Below are positions 10,121 through 63,896 of a stretch of DNA of 64,000 nucleotides, one piece after another. Under the pieces are notes generated by a model that saw only the letters and a program-made list of their open reading frames with translations, was not told the DNA's origin and did not search any database. The stretch's first letter is position 1. Each line of letters starts with the position of its first letter. The stretch lies in NCBI RefSeq assembly GCF_055900595.2, contig NZ_CM148325.1. One strand, written 5' to 3'. The translations under genes and the position numbers were made by a program.

Positions 10121-10238
10121 TGTTCATGCCGGATGCGGCGTGAACGCCTTATCCGGCCTACAAGATCGTGCAAATTCAATATATTGCATGAGCCATGTAG
10201 GCCTGATAAGCGTAGAGCATCAGGCAGTTTTGCGTTTG
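10121..10238. repeat. REP/BIME (RIP-like) element: two inverted REP palindromes flanking an AT-rich spacer
   Basis: GCCGGATGCGGCGTGAACGCCTTATCCGGCCTACA ... GTAGGCCTGATAAGCGTAGAGCATCAGGCA; near-identical copy at 41201..41318. Confidence 0.85.
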
Positions 10239-15753: not shown

Positions 15754-16709
15754 TGAAGCAACTTTGGTTTGCCATGTCATTAGTGACAGGTAGCCTGTTA
15801 TTCTCTGCTAACGCCTCGGCCACTCCCGCGTCCGGGGCGTTATTACAGCAGATGAACCTGGCCAGTCAGTCACTGAATTACGAGCTGTCATTCATCAGCA
15901 TCAATAAACAGGGTGTTGAGTCTCTGCGTTATCGACATGCACGCCTCGATAACCGTCCTCTTGCACAATTGTTGCAAATGGATGGCCCGCGCCGGGAAGT
16001 GGTACAGCGCGGCAATGAAATCAGCTACTTTGAACCGGGCCTTGAACCGTTCACGCTTAATGGCGATTACATTGTTGATTCTCTGCCATCGCTCATCTAT
16101 ACCGATTTCAAACGCCTTTCTCCTTACTACGACTTTATCTCCGTGGGACGCACGCGTATTGCTGATCGTCTTTGCGAAGTCATTCGCGTGGTGGCCCGTG
16201 ATGGCACACGCTACAGCTACATCGTGTGGATGGACACCGAATCGAAATTACCGATGCGGGTTGATCTCCTTGATCGCGATGGTGAAACGCTGGAACAATT
16301 TCGCGTGATTGCTTTTAACGTTAATCAGGATATCAGCAGCAGTATGCAGACGCTGGCGAAAGCAAATCTGCCGCCGCTGCTTTCTGTTCCTGTAGGTGAA
16401 AAAGCTAAATTCAGCTGGACGCCAACCTGGTTGCCACAGGGGTTTAGTGAAGTTTCCAGCAGCCGACGTCCGTTACCGACGATGGACAACATGCCTATCG
16501 AATCACGTCTCTATTCCGACGGATTATTCAGCTTCTCGGTAAACGTTAACCGCGCTACGCCATCGAGCACCGATCAGATGTTGCGCACCGGACGCAGAAC
16601 CGTCAGTACAAGCGTACGTGATAACGCCGAAATCACCATTGTCGGCGAACTGCCGCCGCAAACGGCGAAACGCATTGCCGAGAATATTAAGTTCGGGGCA
16701 GCGCAATGA
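15753..16709 (+). CDS. rseB: SigmaE regulatory protein RseB (periplasmic)
   Basis: 318 aa with signal peptide; operon position. Confidence 0.95.
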   Translation: MKQLWFAMSLVTGSLLFSANASATPASGALLQQMNLASQSLNYELSFISINKQGVESLRYRHARLDNRPLAQLLQMDGPRREVVQRGNEISYFEPGLEPFTLNGDYIVDSLPSLIYTDFKRLSPYYDFISVGRTRIADRLCEVIRVVARDGTRYSYIVWMDTESKLPMRVDLLDRDGETLEQFRVIAFNVNQDISSSMQTLAKANLPPLLSVPVGEKAKFSWTPTWLPQGFSEVSSSRRPLPTMDNMPIESRLYSDGLFSFSVNVNRATPSSTDQMLRTGRRTVSTSVRDNAEITIVGELPPQTAKRIAENIKFGAAQ

Positions 16710-17185
16710 TCAAAGAGTGGGCTACGGTCGTCTCCTGGCAAAACGGGCAGGCGCTGGTCAGTTGTGATGTTAAAGCCTCATGCAGCAGCTGTGCTTCCCG
16801 TGTCGGTTGCGGTAGCCGCGTGCTGAATAAACTTGGCCCACAAACCACGCATACCATTGTCGTACCCTGTGATGAACCGTTAGTACCGGGGCAAAAAGTG
16901 GAATTAGGAATCACCGAAGGCAGCCTGCTTAGCTCCGCATTACTGGTTTATATGTCGCCGTTGGTGGGATTATTCCTCATCGCTTCGTTATTTCAGCTAC
17001 TCTTTGCTTCAGATCTTGCAGCATTATGCGGTGCGATTCTCGGCGGCGTTGGTGGATTCCTGATTGCACGCAGCTACTCGCGAAAGTTTGCTGCCCGGGC
17101 AGAATGGCAACCGATCATCTTAAGCGTGGCATTGCCGCCAGGCCTTGTGCGATTTGAAACATCTTCGGAAGACGCGAGCCAGTGA
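16706..17185 (+). CDS. rseC: SigmaE regulatory protein RseC
   Basis: 159 aa membrane protein; 4-bp overlap with rseB. Confidence 0.92.
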   Translation: MIKEWATVVSWQNGQALVSCDVKASCSSCASRVGCGSRVLNKLGPQTTHTIVVPCDEPLVPGQKVELGITEGSLLSSALLVYMSPLVGLFLIASLFQLLFASDLAALCGAILGGVGGFLIARSYSRKFAARAEWQPIILSVALPPGLVRFETSSEDASQ

Positions 17186-17382
17186 TTTCACTGGCTTTGT
17201 TGCATTTTGCATAACAAATGCGAGGACGTTTCCAGATACCACAATCCATACCGTATGAACATTTCCTCGCCTCAATGTTGTAGTGTAGAATGCGGCGTTT
17301 CTATTAATACAGACGTTAAGCTCAGAACAGCGACTTCTAAAAGCCTGGTTAACCGGGCATTAAGGCACAATAATCATACTTT

Positions 17383-19182
<1,800 letters not shown>

Positions 19183-20220: not shown

Positions 20221-20414
20221 ATTTATGAGATAAATCCCCCGTGGCTAACGACATCCCCCGTCGTTGTGTATAGAATATTCCCCCGAAGTTTAAGGTTGGC
20301 ACCTCCAGGTTGCCACGGCACACGAAACAGCGTTGGTCCCCATATACCGGTAAACTGAAACTGCAGCGAAGCAGTTAGCAGAGCCATGTATATCAGGTCT
20401 GTTTCGTGTGCTGA

Positions 20415-22027
<1,613 letters not shown>

Positions 22028-24010: not shown

Positions 24011-24033
24011 AATAATACCGTTCTCTTTAAAAA

Positions 24034-24070
24034 GTAAAACCCCCGAACTGGTAAGGAACGGGGGTTTTAC
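24034..24070. terminator. Rho-independent terminator after acpS
   Basis: Hairpin AAAACCCCCG-n-CGGGGGTTTT followed by T-rich tract. Confidence 0.75.
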
Positions 24071-24429
24071 TTTACAACTTTAATTTTGTGCAGCACACGA
24101 TTCCAACAAAAATGATTATGGATCAATTTAGTTATCCTGTACAAGCAACTTGCAATCTTTAGCATAAAAACTCGAGCCTTTACGAAGAAATCGATATTGA
24201 TGAAAAGATTAACGTGACCGCTTTTTGATAAGTACATTAGAATCGGCGTCGTTATTGGATATTTTGCTGTGTTCTACGCCATGCCACTGAATTCCCCCAT
24301 TGAAACGAGTGGTGTCGTCAAAGCTCTGGTGTGGAGTGCGGCACTCGATTCCAATAACTCGCACGTTCAGTTTTGGGGAGATGTAAGGGCTAATCTGAAC
24401 GGCTGCATTCCTTGTTTAAGGAAAAACGA

Positions 24430-27501: not shown

Positions 27502-29603
<2,102 letters not shown>

Positions 29604-29768
29604 TTAGTTAATTCTCTGTGTCGTGCGCATCCCAGCTTGAAAAAACGTAATAATAGTGAAAGGTTTACTCATAAATGAGCGGCATTTTGCGTAAACCAGC
29701 GCCAGTTGGCAACTTATTACAGCCATTGGCGGCACGCGTTGCTAATTCACAATGGTGATTTTATTTCC

Positions 29769-29784
29769 ACGCAAACGGTTTCGT
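29769..29784 (+). promoter_or_regulatory. PurR operator (pur box) in the purL leader: ACGCAAACGGTTTCGT
   Basis: Close match to PurR consensus ACGCAAACGTTTGCGT, about 80 bp upstream of purL start. Confidence 0.8.
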
Positions 29785-29860
29785 CAGCGCATCAGATTCT
29801 TTATAATGACGCCCGTTTCCCCCCCTTGGGTACACCGAAAGCTTAGAAGACGAGAGACTT

Positions 29861-32800
29861 ATGATGGAAATTCTGCGTGGTTCGCCTGCATTGTCGGCAT
29901 TCCGAATCAACAAACTGCTGGCACGTTTTCAGGCTGCCAGGCTCCCGGTTCACAATATTTACGCCGAGTATGTCCATTTTGCTGACCTCAATGCGCCGTT
30001 AAACGATGATGAGCACGCACAACTTGAACGCCTGCTGAAATATGGCCCGGCACTCGCCAGCCACGCCCCGCAAGGCAAACTCCTGCTGGTGACTCCGCGT
30101 CCTGGTACCATCTCTCCCTGGTCTTCGAAAGCGACCGATATCGCCCATAACTGCGGGCTGCAACAGGTAAACCGCCTTGAGCGCGGCGTTGCTTACTATA
30201 TAGAAGCCGGTACGCTGACCCATCAACAATGGCAGCAGGTGACCGCTGAACTGCACGACCGCATGATGGAAACGGTCTTTTCTGCTTTAGATGATGCAGA
30301 GCAGCTGTTTGCACACCATCAACCGACTCCGGTCACCAGCGTTGATTTGCTGGGGCAGGGCCGTCAGGCGCTAATCGACGCTAACCTGCGTCTTGGCCTG
30401 GCACTGGCGGAAGATGAAATTGACTATCTGCAGGATGCGTTCACAAAGCTGGGTCGTAACCCGAACGACATCGAGCTGTATATGTTCGCCCAGGCGAATT
30501 CTGAGCACTGCCGCCACAAAATTTTTAACGCCGACTGGATTATCGACGGAGAACAACAGCCGAAATCGCTGTTCAAGATGATCAAAAACACCTTCGAAAC
30601 CACGCCGGATCACGTTCTCTCGGCTTATAAAGATAACGCCGCCGTAATGGAAGGTTCTGAAGTGGGCCGCTACTTTGCTGACCACGAAACGGGCCGCTAC
30701 GATTTCCATCAGGAACCGGCGCACATTCTGATGAAAGTCGAAACCCACAACCACCCAACGGCGATTTCTCCGTGGCCGGGCGCAGCTACCGGTTCCGGCG
30801 GTGAAATTCGCGATGAAGGTGCCACCGGCCGCGGCGCGAAGCCGAAAGCTGGCCTGGTCGGTTTCTCCGTATCCAACCTGCGTATTCCTGGCTTTGAACA
30901 ACCGTGGGAAGAAGATTTCGGTAAGCCTGAGCGCATTGTCACCGCGCTGGACATCATGACAGAAGGTCCGCTGGGCGGCGCGGCATTTAACAACGAATTT
31001 GGTCGTCCGGCACTGAACGGCTACTTCCGTACCTATGAAGAAAAAGTGAACAGCCACAACGGCGAAGAGCTGCGCGGGTATCACAAACCGATCATGCTGG
31101 CGGGTGGGATCGGCAACATTCGCGCCGATCACGTACAAAAAGGTGAGATCAACGTCGGTGCGAAACTGGTCGTTCTCGGCGGCCCGGCAATGAACATCGG
31201 TCTTGGCGGCGGCGCGGCGTCTTCCATGGCGTCTGGTCAGTCTGATGCCGACCTCGACTTTGCTTCCGTACAGCGCGATAACCCGGAGATGGAGCGTCGC
31301 TGTCAGGAAGTGATCGACCGTTGCTGGCAGCTTGGTGATGCTAACCCAATTCTGTTTATCCACGACGTCGGCGCAGGCGGTCTTTCTAACGCGATGCCGG
31401 AACTGGTGAGCGACGGCGGACGCGGCGGTAAATTCGAACTGCGCGATATTCTGAGCGACGAACCGGGCATGAGCCCGCTGGAAATCTGGTGTAACGAATC
31501 CCAGGAACGCTACGTGCTGGCGGTTGCTGCCGATCAGTTACCGCTGTTTGACGAACTGTGTAAGCGTGAACGCGCGCCCTACGCGGTGATTGGTGAAGCG
31601 ACCGAAGAACTGCATCTTTCTCTGCACGATCGTCATTTTGATAATCAGCCGATCGATCTGCCGCTGGACGTCCTGCTTGGTAAAACGCCGAAGATGACCC
31701 GCGATGTGCAAACGCTGAAAGCGAAAGGCGACGCGCTGGCCCGTGAAGGGATCACCATTGCAGACGCGGTGAAACGTGTGCTGCATCTGCCGACTGTGGC
31801 GGAAAAAACCTTCCTGGTGACCATTGGCGACCGCAGCGTAACCGGTATGGTGGCGCGCGATCAGATGGTGGGGCCGTGGCAGGTGCCGGTCGCTAACTGC
31901 GCGGTCACTACCGCCAGCCTCGACAGCTACTACGGCGAAGCGATGGCAATTGGCGAACGTGCGCCGGTTGCACTGCTGGATTTCGCCGCCTCTGCCCGTC
32001 TGGCGGTCGGTGAAGCGTTAACCAATATTGCCGCAACGCAGATTGGCGATATCAAACGCATTAAACTTTCCGCCAACTGGATGGCGGCGGCAGGCCACCC
32101 TGGTGAAGATGCAGGCCTGTATGAAGCCGTTAAAGCGGTGGGCGAAGAGCTTTGTCCGGCGCTGGGCCTGACGATTCCGGTGGGTAAAGACTCCATGTCG
32201 ATGAAAACCCGCTGGCAGGAAGGTAGCGAAGAGCGCGAAATGACCTCGCCGCTTTCGCTGGTGATTTCTGCATTTGCCCGCGTGGAAGATGTACGTCACA
32301 CCATCACGCCGCAGCTTTCTACCGAAGATAACGCACTGCTGCTGATTGATTTAGGCAAAGGCAATAACGCGCTGGGCGCAACGGCGCTGGCGCAGGTTTA
32401 TCGTCAGCTTGGCGACAAACCGGCAGATGTACGCGATGTCGCGCAACTGAAAGGCTTCTATGACGCGGTTCAGGCGCTGGTAGCACAGCGTAAGCTGCTC
32501 GCGTACCACGACCGCTCTGATGGCGGCCTGCTGGTAACGCTGGCGGAAATGGCCTTTGCTGGTCATTGCGGCATTGACGCGGATATCGCCACTCTGGGTG
32601 ACGATCGCCTGGCGGCGTTGTTTAACGAAGAACTGGGTGCGGTGATTCAGGTTCGAGCCGCTGACCGTAAAGCAGTTGAAGCGGTACTGGCACAGCATGG
32701 GCTTGCTGATTGCGTCCATTATGTTGGCCAGGCGGTTTCCGGTGACCGTTTTGTGATTACCGCCAACGGGCAGACTGTATTCAGCGAAAGCCGCACTACG

Positions 32801-33748
32801 TTGCGTGTCTGGTGGGCAGAAACTACCTGGCAGATGCAGCGCCTGCGTGACAATCCGGAGTGTGCCGATCAGGAACATCAGGCGAAATCTAACGACGCCG
32901 ATCCGGGCCTGAATGTGAAACTGTCGTTTGATATCAACGAAGATGTGGCAGCACCGTATATTGCCACTGGTGCGCGTCCGAAAGTTGCCGTGCTGCGTGA
33001 GCAGGGGGTGAACTCGCATGTTGAAATGGCGGCAGCTTTCCACCGTGCAGGCTTCGATGCAATCGATGTGCATATGAGCGACCTGCTGGCTGGACGCACG
33101 GGCCTGGAGGATTTCCACGCTCTGGTAGCGTGCGGCGGTTTCTCCTACGGTGATGTGCTGGGTGCTGGTGAAGGTTGGGCGAAGTCTATCCTGTTCAATG
33201 ACCGTGTACGCGATGAGTTTGCAACCTTCTTCCACCGTCCGCAAACGCTGGCGCTGGGGGTATGTAACGGTTGCCAGATGATGTCTAACCTACGTGAACT
33301 GATCCCAGGTAGCGAGTTGTGGCCACGTTTCGTGCGTAACACCTCCGATCGCTTTGAAGCGCGTTTCAGCCTGGTAGAAGTGACACAAAGCCCGTCGCTG
33401 CTGTTGCAAGGGATGGTGGGTTCGCAGATGCCGATTGCTGTCTCTCACGGCGAAGGACGCGTGGAAGTGCGCGATGCGGCGCATCTGGCGGCACTGGAAA
33501 GCAAAGGGCTGGTGGCACTGCGCTATGTCGATAACTTCGGCAAAGTCACTGAAACCTACCCGGCTAACCCGAACGGTTCTCCGAATGGTATTACGGCGGT
33601 CACGACTGAAAATGGTCGAGTCACCATTATGATGCCGCACCCGGAACGTGTTTTCCGTACTGTCAGTAACTCCTGGCATCCGGAAAACTGGGGCGAGGAT
33701 GGCCCATGGATGCGTATTTTCCGCAATGCGCGTAAGCAGTTGGGGTAA
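29861..33748 (+). CDS. purL: Phosphoribosylformylglycinamidine synthase (FGAM synthase, large single-chain form)
   Basis: 1295 aa; C-terminal glutamine amidotransferase domain with catalytic Cys (GVCNGCQ). Confidence 0.97.
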
Positions 33749-34082: not shown

Positions 34083-34268
34083 AGTGGCTCATTCACCGAC
34101 TTATGTCAGCCCCTTCGGGACGTGCTACATAAAATTCGAATGACGCACAACAAGGTGCCTGCCGTCCAACTTCTGATATCAGCTTAGCTATATCAACCCT
34201 CGGGCGAAACGTCGAGTTAGGCACCGCCTTATTCCATAACAAAGCCGGGTTATTCCCGGCTTTGTTGT
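34083..34268 (+). ncRNA. glmY: Small RNA GlmY (controls GlmZ/glmS via RapZ)
   Basis: Sequence recognised (AGUGGCUCAUUCACCGACUUAUGUCAGCCCCUUCGGGAC...); ends in terminator AAAGCCGGG-n-CCCGGCUUUGUUGU; lies between purL and glrK. Confidence 0.85.
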
Positions 34269-34324: not shown

Positions 34325-35752
34325 TTGAAACGCTGGCCCGTTTTTCCCCGCTCATTACGACAACTGGTAATGCTGGCATTTTTGCTGATTCTGCTACCCC
34401 TGTTGGTGCTGGCATGGCAAGCCTGGCAAAGCCTGAATGCGCTTAGCGATCAGGCGGCGCTGGTTAACCGCACTACGCTTATTGATGCCCGGCGCAGTGA
34501 AGCGATGACCAACGCGGCGCTGGAGATGGAGCGTAGCTACCGTCAGTATTGCGTGCTGGACGACCCAACTCTGGCGAAGGTTTATCAAAGCCAGCGCAAG
34601 CGTTACAGCGAAATGCTCGATGCCCACGCAGGCGTACTGCCGGACGATAAACTTTACCAGGCATTGCGTCAGGATTTGAACAATCTGGCTCAACTTCAGT
34701 GTAACAACAGCGGTCCCGATGCTGCTGCCGCCGCGCGTCTGGAAGCCTTTGCCAGTGCCAATACCGAAATGGTACAGGCCACGCGCACAGTGGTGTTCTC
34801 TCGCGGACAGCAGCTTCAGCGTGAAATCGCCGAACGTGGGCAATATTTTGGTTGGCAATCGCTGGTGTTATTTCTGGTAAGTCTGGTGATGGTACTGCTC
34901 TTCACGCGGATGATTATCGGCCCGGTGAAAAATATTGAACGGATGATCAACCGTCTGGGGGAAGGGCGTTCTCTGGGCAATAGCGTTTCGTTCAGTGGAC
35001 CGAGTGAGTTACGCTCGGTTGGGCAACGTATTCTCTGGTTAAGCGAACGCCTGTCATGGCTGGAATCCCAGCGCCATCAATTTTTAAGACATTTATCTCA
35101 TGAATTAAAAACGCCGCTGGCGAGTATGCGCGAGGGCACTGAATTACTGGCTGACCAGGTTGTCGGGCCGCTTACGCCCGAGCAAAAAGAGGTGGTGAGC
35201 ATCCTTGATAGCAGCAGCCGCAATTTGCAAAAACTGATCGAACAACTGCTTGATTACAACCGTAAACAGGCGGACGGCGCGGTGGAACTGGAGAGTGTAG
35301 AGCTGGCACCGCTGGTGGAAATGGTGGTTTCTGCTCATAGCCTGCCCGCACGGGCTAAAATGATGCATACCGACGTCGATCTCAAAGCAACTGTTTGCCT
35401 GGCGGAGCCAATGCTGCTGATGAGCGTACTGGATAATCTTTACTCCAATGCGGTGCACTACGGGGCTGAATCCGGTAACATTTGCCTTCGCAGCAGTTTA
35501 CATGGCGCGCGGGTTTATATTGATGTCATCAATACAGGCACACCCATTCCGCAAGAGGAACGCGCCATGATCTTCGAACCCTTTTTTCAGGGAAGCCACC
35601 AGCGAAAAGGGGCGGTGAAGGGCAGCGGTCTGGGATTAAGCATTGCCAGGGATTGTATTCGCCGTATGCAGGGGGAACTGTATCTGGTCGACGAGAGCGG
35701 GCAAGAGGTTTGCTTCCGCATTGAATTACCGTCGTCGAAAAACACGAAATAA
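34325..35752 (+). CDS. glrK: Sensor histidine kinase GlrK (QseE/YfhK)
   Basis: 475 aa if started at TTG 34325 (MKRWPVFPRSL...); H-box HELKTPL; HATPase domain. Confidence 0.88.
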   Translation: MKRWPVFPRSLRQLVMLAFLLILLPLLVLAWQAWQSLNALSDQAALVNRTTLIDARRSEAMTNAALEMERSYRQYCVLDDPTLAKVYQSQRKRYSEMLDAHAGVLPDDKLYQALRQDLNNLAQLQCNNSGPDAAAAARLEAFASANTEMVQATRTVVFSRGQQLQREIAERGQYFGWQSLVLFLVSLVMVLLFTRMIIGPVKNIERMINRLGEGRSLGNSVSFSGPSELRSVGQRILWLSERLSWLESQRHQFLRHLSHELKTPLASMREGTELLADQVVGPLTPEQKEVVSILDSSSRNLQKLIEQLLDYNRKQADGAVELESVELAPLVEMVVSAHSLPARAKMMHTDVDLKATVCLAEPMLLMSVLDNLYSNAVHYGAESGNICLRSSLHGARVYIDVINTGTPIPQEERAMIFEPFFQGSHQRKGAVKGSGLGLSIARDCIRRMQGELYLVDESGQEVCFRIELPSSKNTK

Positions 35753-36630: not shown

Positions 36631-37954
36631 ACCTGCGCATTTATTACTGGTCGATGACGATCCAGGATTGCTGAAACTGCTTGGTCTGCGTCTGACCAGC
36701 GAAGGTTATAGCGTGGTTACGGCGGAAAGTGGAGCTGAAGGATTGCGGATACTGAATCGTGAAAAAGTAGATTTAGTCATCAGCGATCTGCGGATGGATG
36801 AAATGGATGGTATGCAACTGTTTGCCGAAATCCAGAAAGTGCAGCCAGGTATGCCAGTAATCATCCTCACCGCGCATGGTTCCATTCCCGATGCCGTTGC
36901 CGCGACACAGCAGGGCGTGTTCAGTTTCCTCACCAAGCCTGTCGATAAAGACGCGCTGTATCAGGCAATTGACGATGCGCTGGAGCAATCAGCCCCCACT
37001 ACCGACGAACGCTGGCGCGAGGCGATTGTCACCCGCAGCCCGCTGATGCTGCGTTTGCTGGAACAGGCGAGGCTGGTGGCGCAGTCAGATGTTAGCGTTT
37101 TGATTAACGGTCAGAGCGGTACCGGGAAAGAGATTTTTGCCCAGGCGATCCACAACGCCAGCCCGCGCAACAGCAAACCGTTTATTGCTATTAACTGTGG
37201 CGCATTGCCCGAGCAATTGCTGGAGTCAGAGCTGTTTGGTCATGCGCGTGGCGCGTTTACTGGCGCTGTCAGCAATCGTGAAGGTTTATTCCAGGCGGCG
37301 GAAGGCGGTACGCTGTTTCTCGATGAGATTGGCGACATGCCCGCACCGTTGCAGGTCAAACTGCTACGCGTGTTGCAGGAGCGCAAAGTGCGCCCGCTGG
37401 GCAGCAACCGCGATATTGATATCGACGTGCGGATTATTTCCGCCACTCACCGTGACCTGCCAAAGGCGATGGCGCGCGGGGAATTCCGTGAAGATCTCTA
37501 CTATCGCCTCAACGTTGTCAGTCTGAAAATTCCGGCATTGGCGGAGCGCACAGAAGACATTCCGCTACTGGCAAACCACTTATTGCGCCAGGCGGCAGAG
37601 CGACATAAACCGTTTGTCCGCGCATTCTCCACCGATGCAATGAAACGACTGATGACCGCGAGCTGGCCGGGTAATGTGCGCCAGTTGGTCAACGTGATTG
37701 AACAGTGCGTGGCGCTAACATCATCTCCGGTGATTAGTGATGCGTTAGTCGAGCAGGCGCTGGAGGGCGAAAATACGGCTCTGCCAACCTTTGTTGAGGC
37801 GCGTAATCAGTTTGAACTCAACTACTTGCGTAAGCTGCTGCAAATCACCAAAGGGAATGTCACCCACGCGGCGAGAATGGCGGGGCGCAACCGGACAGAA
37901 TTTTATAAACTGCTTTCCCGACACGAGCTGGATGCAAACGATTTCAAGGAATGA
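36620..37954 (+). CDS. glrR: Sigma54-dependent response regulator GlrR (QseF/YfhA)
   Basis: 444 aa; receiver domain, AAA+ sigma54-interaction domain ([15 protein letters not shown]), C-terminal HTH. Confidence 0.93.
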
Positions 37955-37978: not shown

Positions 37979-38353
<375 letters not shown>

Positions 38354-39636: not shown

Positions 39637-39914
39637 ATAAAAAATAGCCCTGCAATGTAAATGGTTCTTTGGTGTTTTTCAGAAAGAATGTGATGAAGTG
39701 AAAAATTTGCATCACAAACCTGAAAAGAAATCCGTTTACGGTTGCAAGCTCTTTATTCTCCAAAGCCTTGCGCAGCCTGAAGGTAATCGTTTGCGTAAAT
39801 TCCTTTGTCAAGACCTGTTATCGCACAATGATTCGGTTATACTGTTCGCCGTTGTCCAACAGGACCGCCTATAAAGGCCGAAAATTTTATTGTTAGCTGA
39901 GTCAGGAGATGCGG

Positions 39915-42676: not shown

Positions 42677-45600
42677 ATGACTCCAGTAAAAGTGTGGCAA
42701 GAGCGCGTTGAGATCCCGACTTATGAAACAGGTCCGCAGGATATACACCCTATGTTCCTGGAAAATCGCGTTTATCAGGGATCGTCCGGTGCGGTTTATC
42801 CCTACGGCGTGACCGATACGCTGAGCGAGCAGAAAGTCCTGAAATCCTGGCAAGCGGTGTGGCTGGAAAACGACTATATCAAAGTGATGATCCTGCCGGA
42901 GTTGGGCGGTCGGGTGCATCGCGCTTGGGATAAAGTGAAACAGCGCGATTTTGTCTATCACAATGAAGTCATTAAACCGGCGCTGGTGGGGCTGCTGGGG
43001 CCGTGGATCTCTGGCGGGATTGAGTTTAACTGGCCACAACACCATCGCCCAACCACCTTTATGCCCGTCGATTTCACCATCGAAGCCCATGAAGACGGCG
43101 CACAAACTGTGTGGGTTGGCGAAACGGAGCCGATGCACGGTTTACAGGTGATGACCGGTTTCACACTACGCCCTGACAGGGCGGCGCTGGAGATTGCCAG
43201 CCGCGTCTATAACGGCAATGCCACGCCGCGTCATTTCTTGTGGTGGGCCAACCCGGCAGTGAAAGGTGGCGAAGGGCATCAGAGCGTTTTCCCGCCGGAT
43301 GTAACGGCGGTGTTTGATCACGGCAAACGGGCTGTTTCAGCTTTCCCTATCGCTACCGGCACTTACTACAAAGTGGACTACTCCGCCGGAGTGGATATTT
43401 CTCGCTATAAAAATGTGCCAGTGCCGACTTCGTATATGGCCGAAAAATCGCAGTACGATTTTGTTGGCGCATGGTGTCACGATGAAGATGGCGGTTTGCT
43501 ACACGTTGCCAACCACCACATCGCGCCAGGTAAAAAACAGTGGAGCTGGGGACACAGTGAATTCGGCCAGGCGTGGGATAAGAGCCTGACCGACAATAAC
43601 GGCCCGTATATCGAACTGATGACGGGTATTTTTGCCGATAACCAGCCCGATTTTACCTGGCTTGATGCTTACGAAGAGAAGCGTTTCGAGCAGTATTTCC
43701 TGCCTTATCATTCTCTGGGCATGGTGCAAAACGCCTCCCGCGATGCGGTGATTAAACTCCAGCGTAGCGAGCGGGGGATTGAGTGGGGGCTGTATGCCAT
43801 CTCCCCGTTGAAAGGATGCCGCCTGGCGATCCGCGAAATCGGCAAATGCAACGCGTTGCTCGACGATGCCGTGGCTCTGACGCCAGCGACCGCCATTCAG
43901 GGCGTGTTGCATGGTATCAATCCTGACAGACTAACCATTGAACTCTCCGATGCCGATGGCAATATCGTACTGAGTTATCAGGAACATCAGCCACAAGAGT
44001 TGCCGTTGCCGGACGTCGCCAAAGCGCCACTGGCAGCACAAGAGATTACCAGTACAGATGAAGCCTGGTTTATCGGTCAGCATCTGGAGCAATATCATCA
44101 TGCCAGCCGTTCCCCCTTCGATTACTACCTGCGCGGCGTGGCGCTGGACCCGCTGGATTATCGCTGTAACCTGGCGTTGGCGATGCTGGAATATAACCGC
44201 GCCGACTTCCCGCAAACGGTGGCGTATGCCACTCAGGCGCTAAAACGCGCACATGCGTTGAACAAAAACCCGCAGTGCGGACAGGCGAGTTTAATTCGCG
44301 CCAGTGCTTACGAACGTCAGGGGCAATATCAACAAGCCGAAGAGGATTTCTGGCGTGCGGTCTGGAGCGGAAACAGTAAAGCCGGTGGCTATTATGGTCT
44401 GGCACGGCTGGCGGCGCGTAATGGTCACTTCGACGCGGGTCTGGATTTTTGCCAACAAAGTCTTCGCGCCTGCCCAACCAATCAGGAAGTGCTTTGCCTG
44501 CATAACCTGCTGCTGGTGTTAAGTGGTCGTCAGGACAACGCGCGTTTGCAGCGAGAGAAGTTGCTGCGTGATTATCCGCTGAACGCCACTCTGTGGTGGC
44601 TGAACTGGTTCGATGGTTGTAGCGAATCTGCCCTCGTACAGTGGCGAGGTCTGTGTCAGGGACGCGACGTTAACGCTCTGATGACCGCCGGGCAACTGAT
44701 TAACTGGGGCATGCCCGCTCTGGCGGCAGAGATGCTGAACGCACTGGACTGTCAGCGCACGCTACCGCTTTACCTGCAAGCCAGTTTGCTGCCAAAAGCT
44801 GAACGCGGAGAACTGGTCGCAAAAGCTATTGATGTCTTCCCGCAGTTTGTCCGTTTCCCTAATACGCTGGAAGAAGTGGCGGCGCTGGAGAGTATCGAAG
44901 AGTGCTGGTTTGCCCGGCATTTACTGGCCTGTTTCTACTACAACAAACGCAGCTACGGCAAAGCAATTGCCTTATGGCAACGTTGCGTTGAGATGTCGCC
45001 GGAGTTTGCCGACGGATGGCGTGGGCTGGCAATCCATGCGTGGAATAAGCAGCATGATTATGAACTGGCTGCGCGTTATCTTGATAATGCTTATCAACTT
45101 GCGCCGCAGGATGCACGTTTGCTATTCGAACGGGATTTGCTGGATAAGTTAACCGGTGCTGCACCAGAAAAACGTCTGGCGCGTCTGGAAGCTAATCTGG
45201 AAATCGCCCTGAAGCGTGATGACATGACCGCAGAATTGCTCAATTTGTGGCATCTCACTGGTCAGGCCGACAAAGCGGCAGAGATTCTCGCCACGCGTAA
45301 ATTCCATCCGTGGGAAGGCGGAGAAGGGAAAGTCACCAGTCAGTTTATCCTCAACCAGTTGTTACGCGCCTGGCAATACCTTGATGCCAGACAACCGCAG
45401 CAGGCCAGCGAACTGCTTCATGCCGCGCTGCACTATCCGGAGAATTTAAGCGAAGGCCGTTTACCGGGGCAAACTGACAACGACATCTGGTTCTGGCAGG
45501 CGATATGTGCCAAAGCCCAGGGCGATGAAACTGCAGCGACGCGTTGTTTACGTCTGGCGGCGACGGGTGATCGCACCATTAACATCCACAGTTATTACAA

Positions 45601-63655: not shown

Positions 63656-63896
63656 TTTAACCGTCCTGTTTCGTGTTGCATCTGCGTTGACTGTACATAC
63701 TCACTCCGGTCACTTACTTATGTAAGCTCCCGGAGATTCGTAAGTTTGTCAACTTGCTGAAACCCGAAACAGTTAGGTTAAAGATAACAAGATATTAGAA
63801 TCAGGCCGGGGCGTCTCGCGCTCCGTAAACACGGTCGTACATCCAGCCGGTAGCCTGGTTCCTTGCATTGAGTGATGTACGGAGTTTATAGAGCAA

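Follow-up and report, generated by a model that had tools for sequence, protein, structure and literature searches.

The PurR box of Escherichia coli purL overlies the −35 region of a conserved promoter

The 16-bp element at positions 29769-29784 of the 64,000-nucleotide stretch of DNA that we analysed (the window, part of an Escherichia coli chromosome) is almost certainly the operator by which PurR, a LacI-family protein, represses transcription initiation at purL. The element is found between mltF and purL, 77 nt ahead of the purL ATG (29861), and extends from −46 to −31 relative to the transcription start, with its centre at −38.5. It is best read as a promoter-occluding operator, neither a leader site nor a roadblock site. 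The identities of the two flanking genes come from the RefSeq annotation of 100%-identical genomes. The regulated gene, purL, is encoded on the plus strand (29861..33748; phosphoribosylformylglycinamidine synthase, 1295 aa, from the list of open reading frames and the RefSeq annotation), and mltF is encoded on the minus strand, with its start codon at 29603 in the RefSeq annotation. As an operator of the E. coli pur regulon, the purL PUR box is textbook material and has been mapped in vivo before; its recovery here has little discovery value. What is added is its precise placement, −46 to −31, over a weak −35 whose distance to a consensus −10 is held at 17 bp across Enterobacterales. As its identity was called correctly from the sequence alone, the site is also a useful positive control for scanning.

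Direct reading of the window gives ACGCAAACGGTTTCGT on the plus strand at 29769-29784, the very letters and position reported in an earlier note on this DNA. This 16-mer differs from the perfect palindrome ACGCAAACGTTTGCGT at two positions and, in minus-strand orientation, from the consensus obtained by ChIP, ACGNAAACGTTTGCNT, at one, which agrees with the earlier statement that it departs from the PurR consensus at only a few positions. It carries the central CpG at positions 8-9 and is self-complementary at 12/16 positions. We scanned the window with a weight matrix, a check that the earlier note had proposed, built from 26 of the ChIP-supported PurR sites tabulated by Cho et al. 2011 (Table 1, PMC3159470); the purL and glyA entries, both from this window, were left out. 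The purL box scored 21.7 bits and ranked first among the 127,970 window positions; it also came fourth among the 28 published ChIP-supported PurR sites when each of these was scored leave-one-out. The exact tail probability at this score is 1.6e-8 per position, and the number of matches expected by chance is 0.002 per 64 kb, 8e-6 per 257-bp intergenic region and ~0.16 per genome. Three other matrix matches were set aside as chance. Those at 44210 and 33239 fall below a score at which ~1.5 matches are expected per window, and that at 35385 is without the central CG; all three are inside coding sequence.

Alignment to the characterised purL operator, also proposed earlier, gave complete identity. 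The purL entry in Table 1 of Cho et al. 2011 (PMC3159470) is the motif ACGAAACCGTTTGCGT at MG1655 2,693,642-657, and the reverse complement of 29769-29784 is this same motif, letter for letter. By sequence identity, the element is the already known purL PurR operator, encountered here in another E. coli strain. In MG1655, a PurR ChIP-chip peak at 2,693,490-714 lies over the motif, with a log2 value of 1.88 with adenine and undetected without it (PMC3159470); this peak is ~225 bp wide, and the motif inside it was assigned computationally. The same study attributes the peak to purL only, names purL among the previously characterised PurR targets, and describes the genes of the IMP pathway as repressed by PurR. 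Adenine-dependent PurR occupancy would carry over to the site in the window through the identity of the 16-mer. Furthermore, in a Yersinia pestis study in which purL serves as a source for the PurR motif, deletion of purR led to increased purL expression, with log2FC of 1.9 and 2.8 (PMC10673613). The proposal of the earlier note that PurR represses purL is thus borne out by a box identical to the adenine-dependent MG1655 ChIP site, in a promoter that is the same as in MG1655.

The site and its regulator are both nearly universal in the species. Of the 5426 complete E. coli genomes, 5425 matched a 1-kb query spanning the purL box and 5424 carry purR; the purR gene itself is not within the 64-kb window. 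Compared with K-12 MG1655, the 291-bp intergenic stretch carries four substitutions, every one of them upstream of the purL box; downstream of these, the two strains agree letter for letter in box, TATAAT, leader and start codon.

We established the purL promoter from mapped transcription start sites and conservation, in place of a consensus scan. A sigma-70 consensus scan with a 4-of-6 rule called no plus-strand promoter at purL or upstream of the box, because the purL −35 is too weak for this rule. In the supplement of Mendoza-Vargas et al. 2009 (PMC2760140), the purL start is placed 46 nt upstream of the start codon, with the −10 given as 'attcTTTATAATgacg' and no −35 called; this start corresponds to one read in the 454 mapping. 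The SMRT-Cappable-seq data of Yan et al. 2018 (PMC6131387 supplement) give a purL start at 2,695,589 and a second start at 2,695,578. Both datasets convert to +1 at the G at 29815 (plus strand) of the window, and the second Cappable-seq start converts to 29826. Counted from this +1, the box covers −46 to −31. The conserved sigma-70 −10 hexamer TATAAT (29802..29807, plus strand; −13 to −8) is the −10 named for the mapped start. The box ends 17 bp before this hexamer, and therefore its TTTCGT (29779..29784, plus strand), which is wholly within the promoter-proximal half of the operator, occupies the −35 slot with a 17-bp spacer. This sequence matches TTGACA at 2/6 positions. From the start runs an unstructured 46-nt untranslated leader (29815..29860, plus strand) that begins G-UUU-C7.

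This layout corrects the earlier note on one point. The note had assigned the box to the leader of purL, at a place downstream of the likely promoter and upstream of the start codon. In fact the box ends at 29784, 31 nt upstream of the start at 29815, so that it is not downstream of the start and instead lies over the −35. The note had also named a mapped purL start downstream of the site as grounds for giving up its reading. Such a start does occur, at 29815; it counts against the leader placement, and repression by PurR stands. The test was ill-posed because PurR operators commonly lie within promoters (PMC3159470), and as worded it would have wrongly rejected a true operator.

We examined conservation of the element in 80 purL loci from different species, fetched with the first 220 PurL residues, 79 of which were usable. 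The pattern [AG]CGCAAACGGTT[TAG]CGT was present upstream of purL in 64/79 usable loci, covering Escherichia, Citrobacter, Enterobacter, Pantoea, Erwinia, Yersinia, Serratia, Dickeya, Hafnia, Budvicia, Providencia and Photorhabdus, as well as two Vibrionaceae. The spacing from the box to the −10 is exactly 17 bp in 62 of the 64 loci and 29 nt in the two Vibrionaceae, and the −10 reads TATAAT in 60 and TATACT in 2 of the 64. Mean information content, calculated per column over 63 unique orthologous sequences, is 1.93 bits for the box and 1.97 bits for the −10 hexamer, against 0.41 bits for the first ten spacer bases after the box, 0.35 bits for the 40 nt upstream of the box and 0.21 bits for the leader beyond about +20. 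At purL of Aeromonas the box is degenerate, scoring 9 bits, with the 17-nt spacing unchanged, and among the 79 usable loci, those of Pseudoalteromonas and other Alteromonadales have no box.

The box is located in a 257-bp intergenic region shared with the divergent gene, in 52 of the 64 loci it is separated from the mltF start codon by 163-166 nt, and a weak minus-strand promoter-like sequence, CTGACG-18-TAAAAT, overlaps it. It might be argued on these grounds that the box mainly regulates mltF, or both genes, and not purL alone. We think this quite improbable. A better, and conserved, promoter-like sequence on the minus strand, TTGCCA-17-CAAAAT (29712..29684), has its −35 57 bp from the box, and the box is then at about −90 to −110 from the predicted mltF start, which is too far for occlusion. 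The −10 of the box-overlapping match, in contrast, is not conserved in Yersinia or Photorhabdus, and regulation of mltF through this match was rejected in favour of the conserved mltF promoter ~57 bp away. Furthermore, the box is fixed at 17 bp from the −10 of purL, and the ChIP peak was assigned to purL only (Cho 2011, PMC3159470). The box is thus best read as an operator of purL.

Several features of the mltF side are described here in their own right. The promoter-like TTGCCA-17-CAAAAT coincides with two blocks, GTTGC and GCAAAATGCC, that are invariant in a 53-sequence alignment, and it predicts an mltF start near 29677; no experimental mltF start was found in the available start site data. 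The mltF start codon is TTG (29601-29603, minus strand), conserved across Enterobacterales (TCAA is invariant on the plus strand), and a conserved TAACTA block is found upstream of it. The interval from mltF to the box (29604-29768) is nearly indel-free from Escherichia to Photorhabdus, keeping the length given above in 52/64 species, and is mostly unconserved in sequence; the length of the purL leader varies from 67 to 133 nt. The constant interval suggests a spacing constraint between back-to-back promoters, and one possibility is that it reflects coupling of the divergent mltF and purL promoters. The Mendoza-Vargas 2009 supplement (PMC2760140) predicts an IHF site, TAACTCATTGATTTTAAT, at −107 to −90 of the purL start. 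This sequence was not seen at the corresponding 29708-29725 when the window was read by eye.

The box overlaps the −35 slot, and it could be conserved as a promoter element (−35/UP). Another thought would be binding by a paralogue from the LacI family, for instance RbsR, which among solved paralogues is the closest to PurR (E = 4.6e-95), since LacI-family operators share an AAnCGnTT core. In either case PurR binding would be incidental, and we give such explanations almost no credence. TTTCGT is a poor −35, with 2/6 matches, yet it never varies, and the distal half ACGCAAAC (−46 to −39), which lies beyond the sigma-70 contacts, varies no more than the proximal one. The constraint is therefore on PurR recognition and not on promoter strength. 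Against a paralogue, the whole 16-mer fits the PurR-specific matrix (P = 1.6e-8), and PurR occupancy in vivo depends on adenine (Cho 2011, PMC3159470). It is just as hard to credit that the box lies in a transcribed leader downstream of its promoter, where PurR would act as an elongation roadblock as it does at purB and purR (Cho 2011, PMC3159470): the box is indeed upstream of the ATG and a weak AT-rich stretch (29755-29768) lies upstream of it, but two datasets give +1 31 nt downstream of the box end and show no purL transcript starting upstream of 29769, the sole conserved −10, TATAAT, follows the box at 17 bp in 62/64 species, and the region upstream is poorly conserved, with no plus-strand promoter in the scan.

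Repression of initiation from a promoter-overlapping operator would work as follows. The PurR corepressors are hypoxanthine and guanine (literature summarised in PMC10912719), and when either is abundant, a corepressor-bound PurR dimer would bind the imperfect palindrome. Of the half-sites, ACGCAAAC and ACGAAACC, each would be read by one of the two helix-turn-helix domains, with the hinge helices inserting at the central CpG, contacts that we infer by analogy with the crystal structures of PurR on the purF operator. PurR seated on the −35 region would then keep RNA polymerase (sigma-70 region 4 and the alpha C-terminal domains) off a promoter dependent on its consensus −10. The geometry of the box points to this kind of steric exclusion; alternatively, PurR centred at −38.5 could hold polymerase in a non-productive state. 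Under purine scarcity, PurR would leave the operator and transcription would start at the G at 29815.

We also considered a riboswitch or attenuator in the leader, and rejected it. No Rfam family matches within 29600-29900, and the purL leader folds worse than 199 of 200 shuffles (z = +1.91). As the leader is unstructured and without an Rfam match, there is therefore no competing purine-responsive leader element. Elsewhere in the window, six Rfam matches were taken at the gathering threshold, all of them expected for this E. coli region: ES036 (10162-10204); AsrC (16670-17501, minus strand), which is antisense to rseC; the rncO leader (20285-20499); ohsC (24031-24107, minus strand), the shoB antitoxin; the GlmY sRNA, between purL and qseE/glrK (34083-34230); and the iscRS element (63785-63894).

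The beginning of the purL transcript deserves separate mention. Its first ~10 nt, in the initially transcribed G-UUU(U)-C5-7 (29815-29825), are conserved across Enterobacterales far above the rest of the leader. Within E. coli the length of the C run at 29819-29825 is polymorphic: C7 is found in this window, in K-12 and in ~4496 complete genomes, C6 in 608 (O157:H7 strains among them), and a single genome has C5, perhaps through an assembly error. At the first base past the run lies the second capped 5' end (2695578, or 29826 in the window). No −10 can be recognised for it, and it may represent either a minor start or an artefact of mapping homopolymeric or slipped transcripts. Starts of the form G-TTT support UTP-sensitive reiterative transcription at carAB P1 (GTTTGC) and at pyrBI. 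A literature search returned nothing substantively linking purL to reiterative transcription. By analogy with those promoters, the initially transcribed sequence might hold a second, undescribed layer of control at purL beyond PurR, which we regard as doubtful. If true, this layer could couple purL output to pyrimidine nucleotide pools. At the other end of the leader, a block reading GCTTnGAAGAyGAGAGA (29837-29866) directly precedes the purL start. Its conservation, which extends from Escherichia to Photorhabdus, exceeds the requirements of a Shine-Dalgarno sequence. The E. coli gene has a tandem ATGATG, of which Yersinia and Photorhabdus share just the second ATG, and the true purL start may therefore be 29864.

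The window holds two further sites of interest for PurR. One, AGGTAATCGTTTGCGT at 39781-39796 on the plus strand, is identical to the glyA motif in Table 1 of Cho 2011 (PMC3159470). It is the second-best matrix match in the window, with 21.1 bits and P = 3e-8, and is situated between hmpA and glyA, 119 nt ahead of the glyA ATG (39915). The other, ATGCAAACGATTTCAA at 37932-37947, is a candidate site for glnB that scores 13.0 bits when read on the minus strand, a level at which ~1.5 matches per window arise by chance. It overlaps the last codons of glrR and is 68 nt before the glnB ATG at 38015, and it presumably matches the published glnB operator. The glnB gene is a previously characterised PurR target that was undetected in the ChIP data of Cho 2011 (PMC3159470).

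Compared with the purL PUR box of E. coli K-12, the element described here has the same 16-mer, −10, leader, start codon and 77-nt distance to the ATG. The two do not differ within the element; the four intergenic substitutions are upstream only. The original footprinting of the purL PUR box is credited to two papers of 1990, by He et al. and by Meng et al. The purF operator, ACGCAAACGTTTTCTT (the reverse complement of the motif AAGAAAACGTTTGCGT in Table 1 of Cho et al. 2011), shares 14/16 bases with the purL box, with the same central CpG and the same consensus left half ACGCAAAC. It differs from the purL operator at position 10, where it has G and not T, and at position 15, again G and not T. 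Structures of PurR exist in the PDB (1PNR, 1QPZ and others), and we take the purF operator to be the DNA in these PurR-hypoxanthine-operator crystals. The glyA and glnB sites belong to the same regulon as purL, and both genes are peripheral members of it. The roadblock operators of purB and purR are bound by the same repressor and come from the same 16-bp motif family as the purL box. In contrast to the purL site, which is upstream of +1 and over the −35, they are within transcribed or coding DNA and block elongation (PMC3159470).
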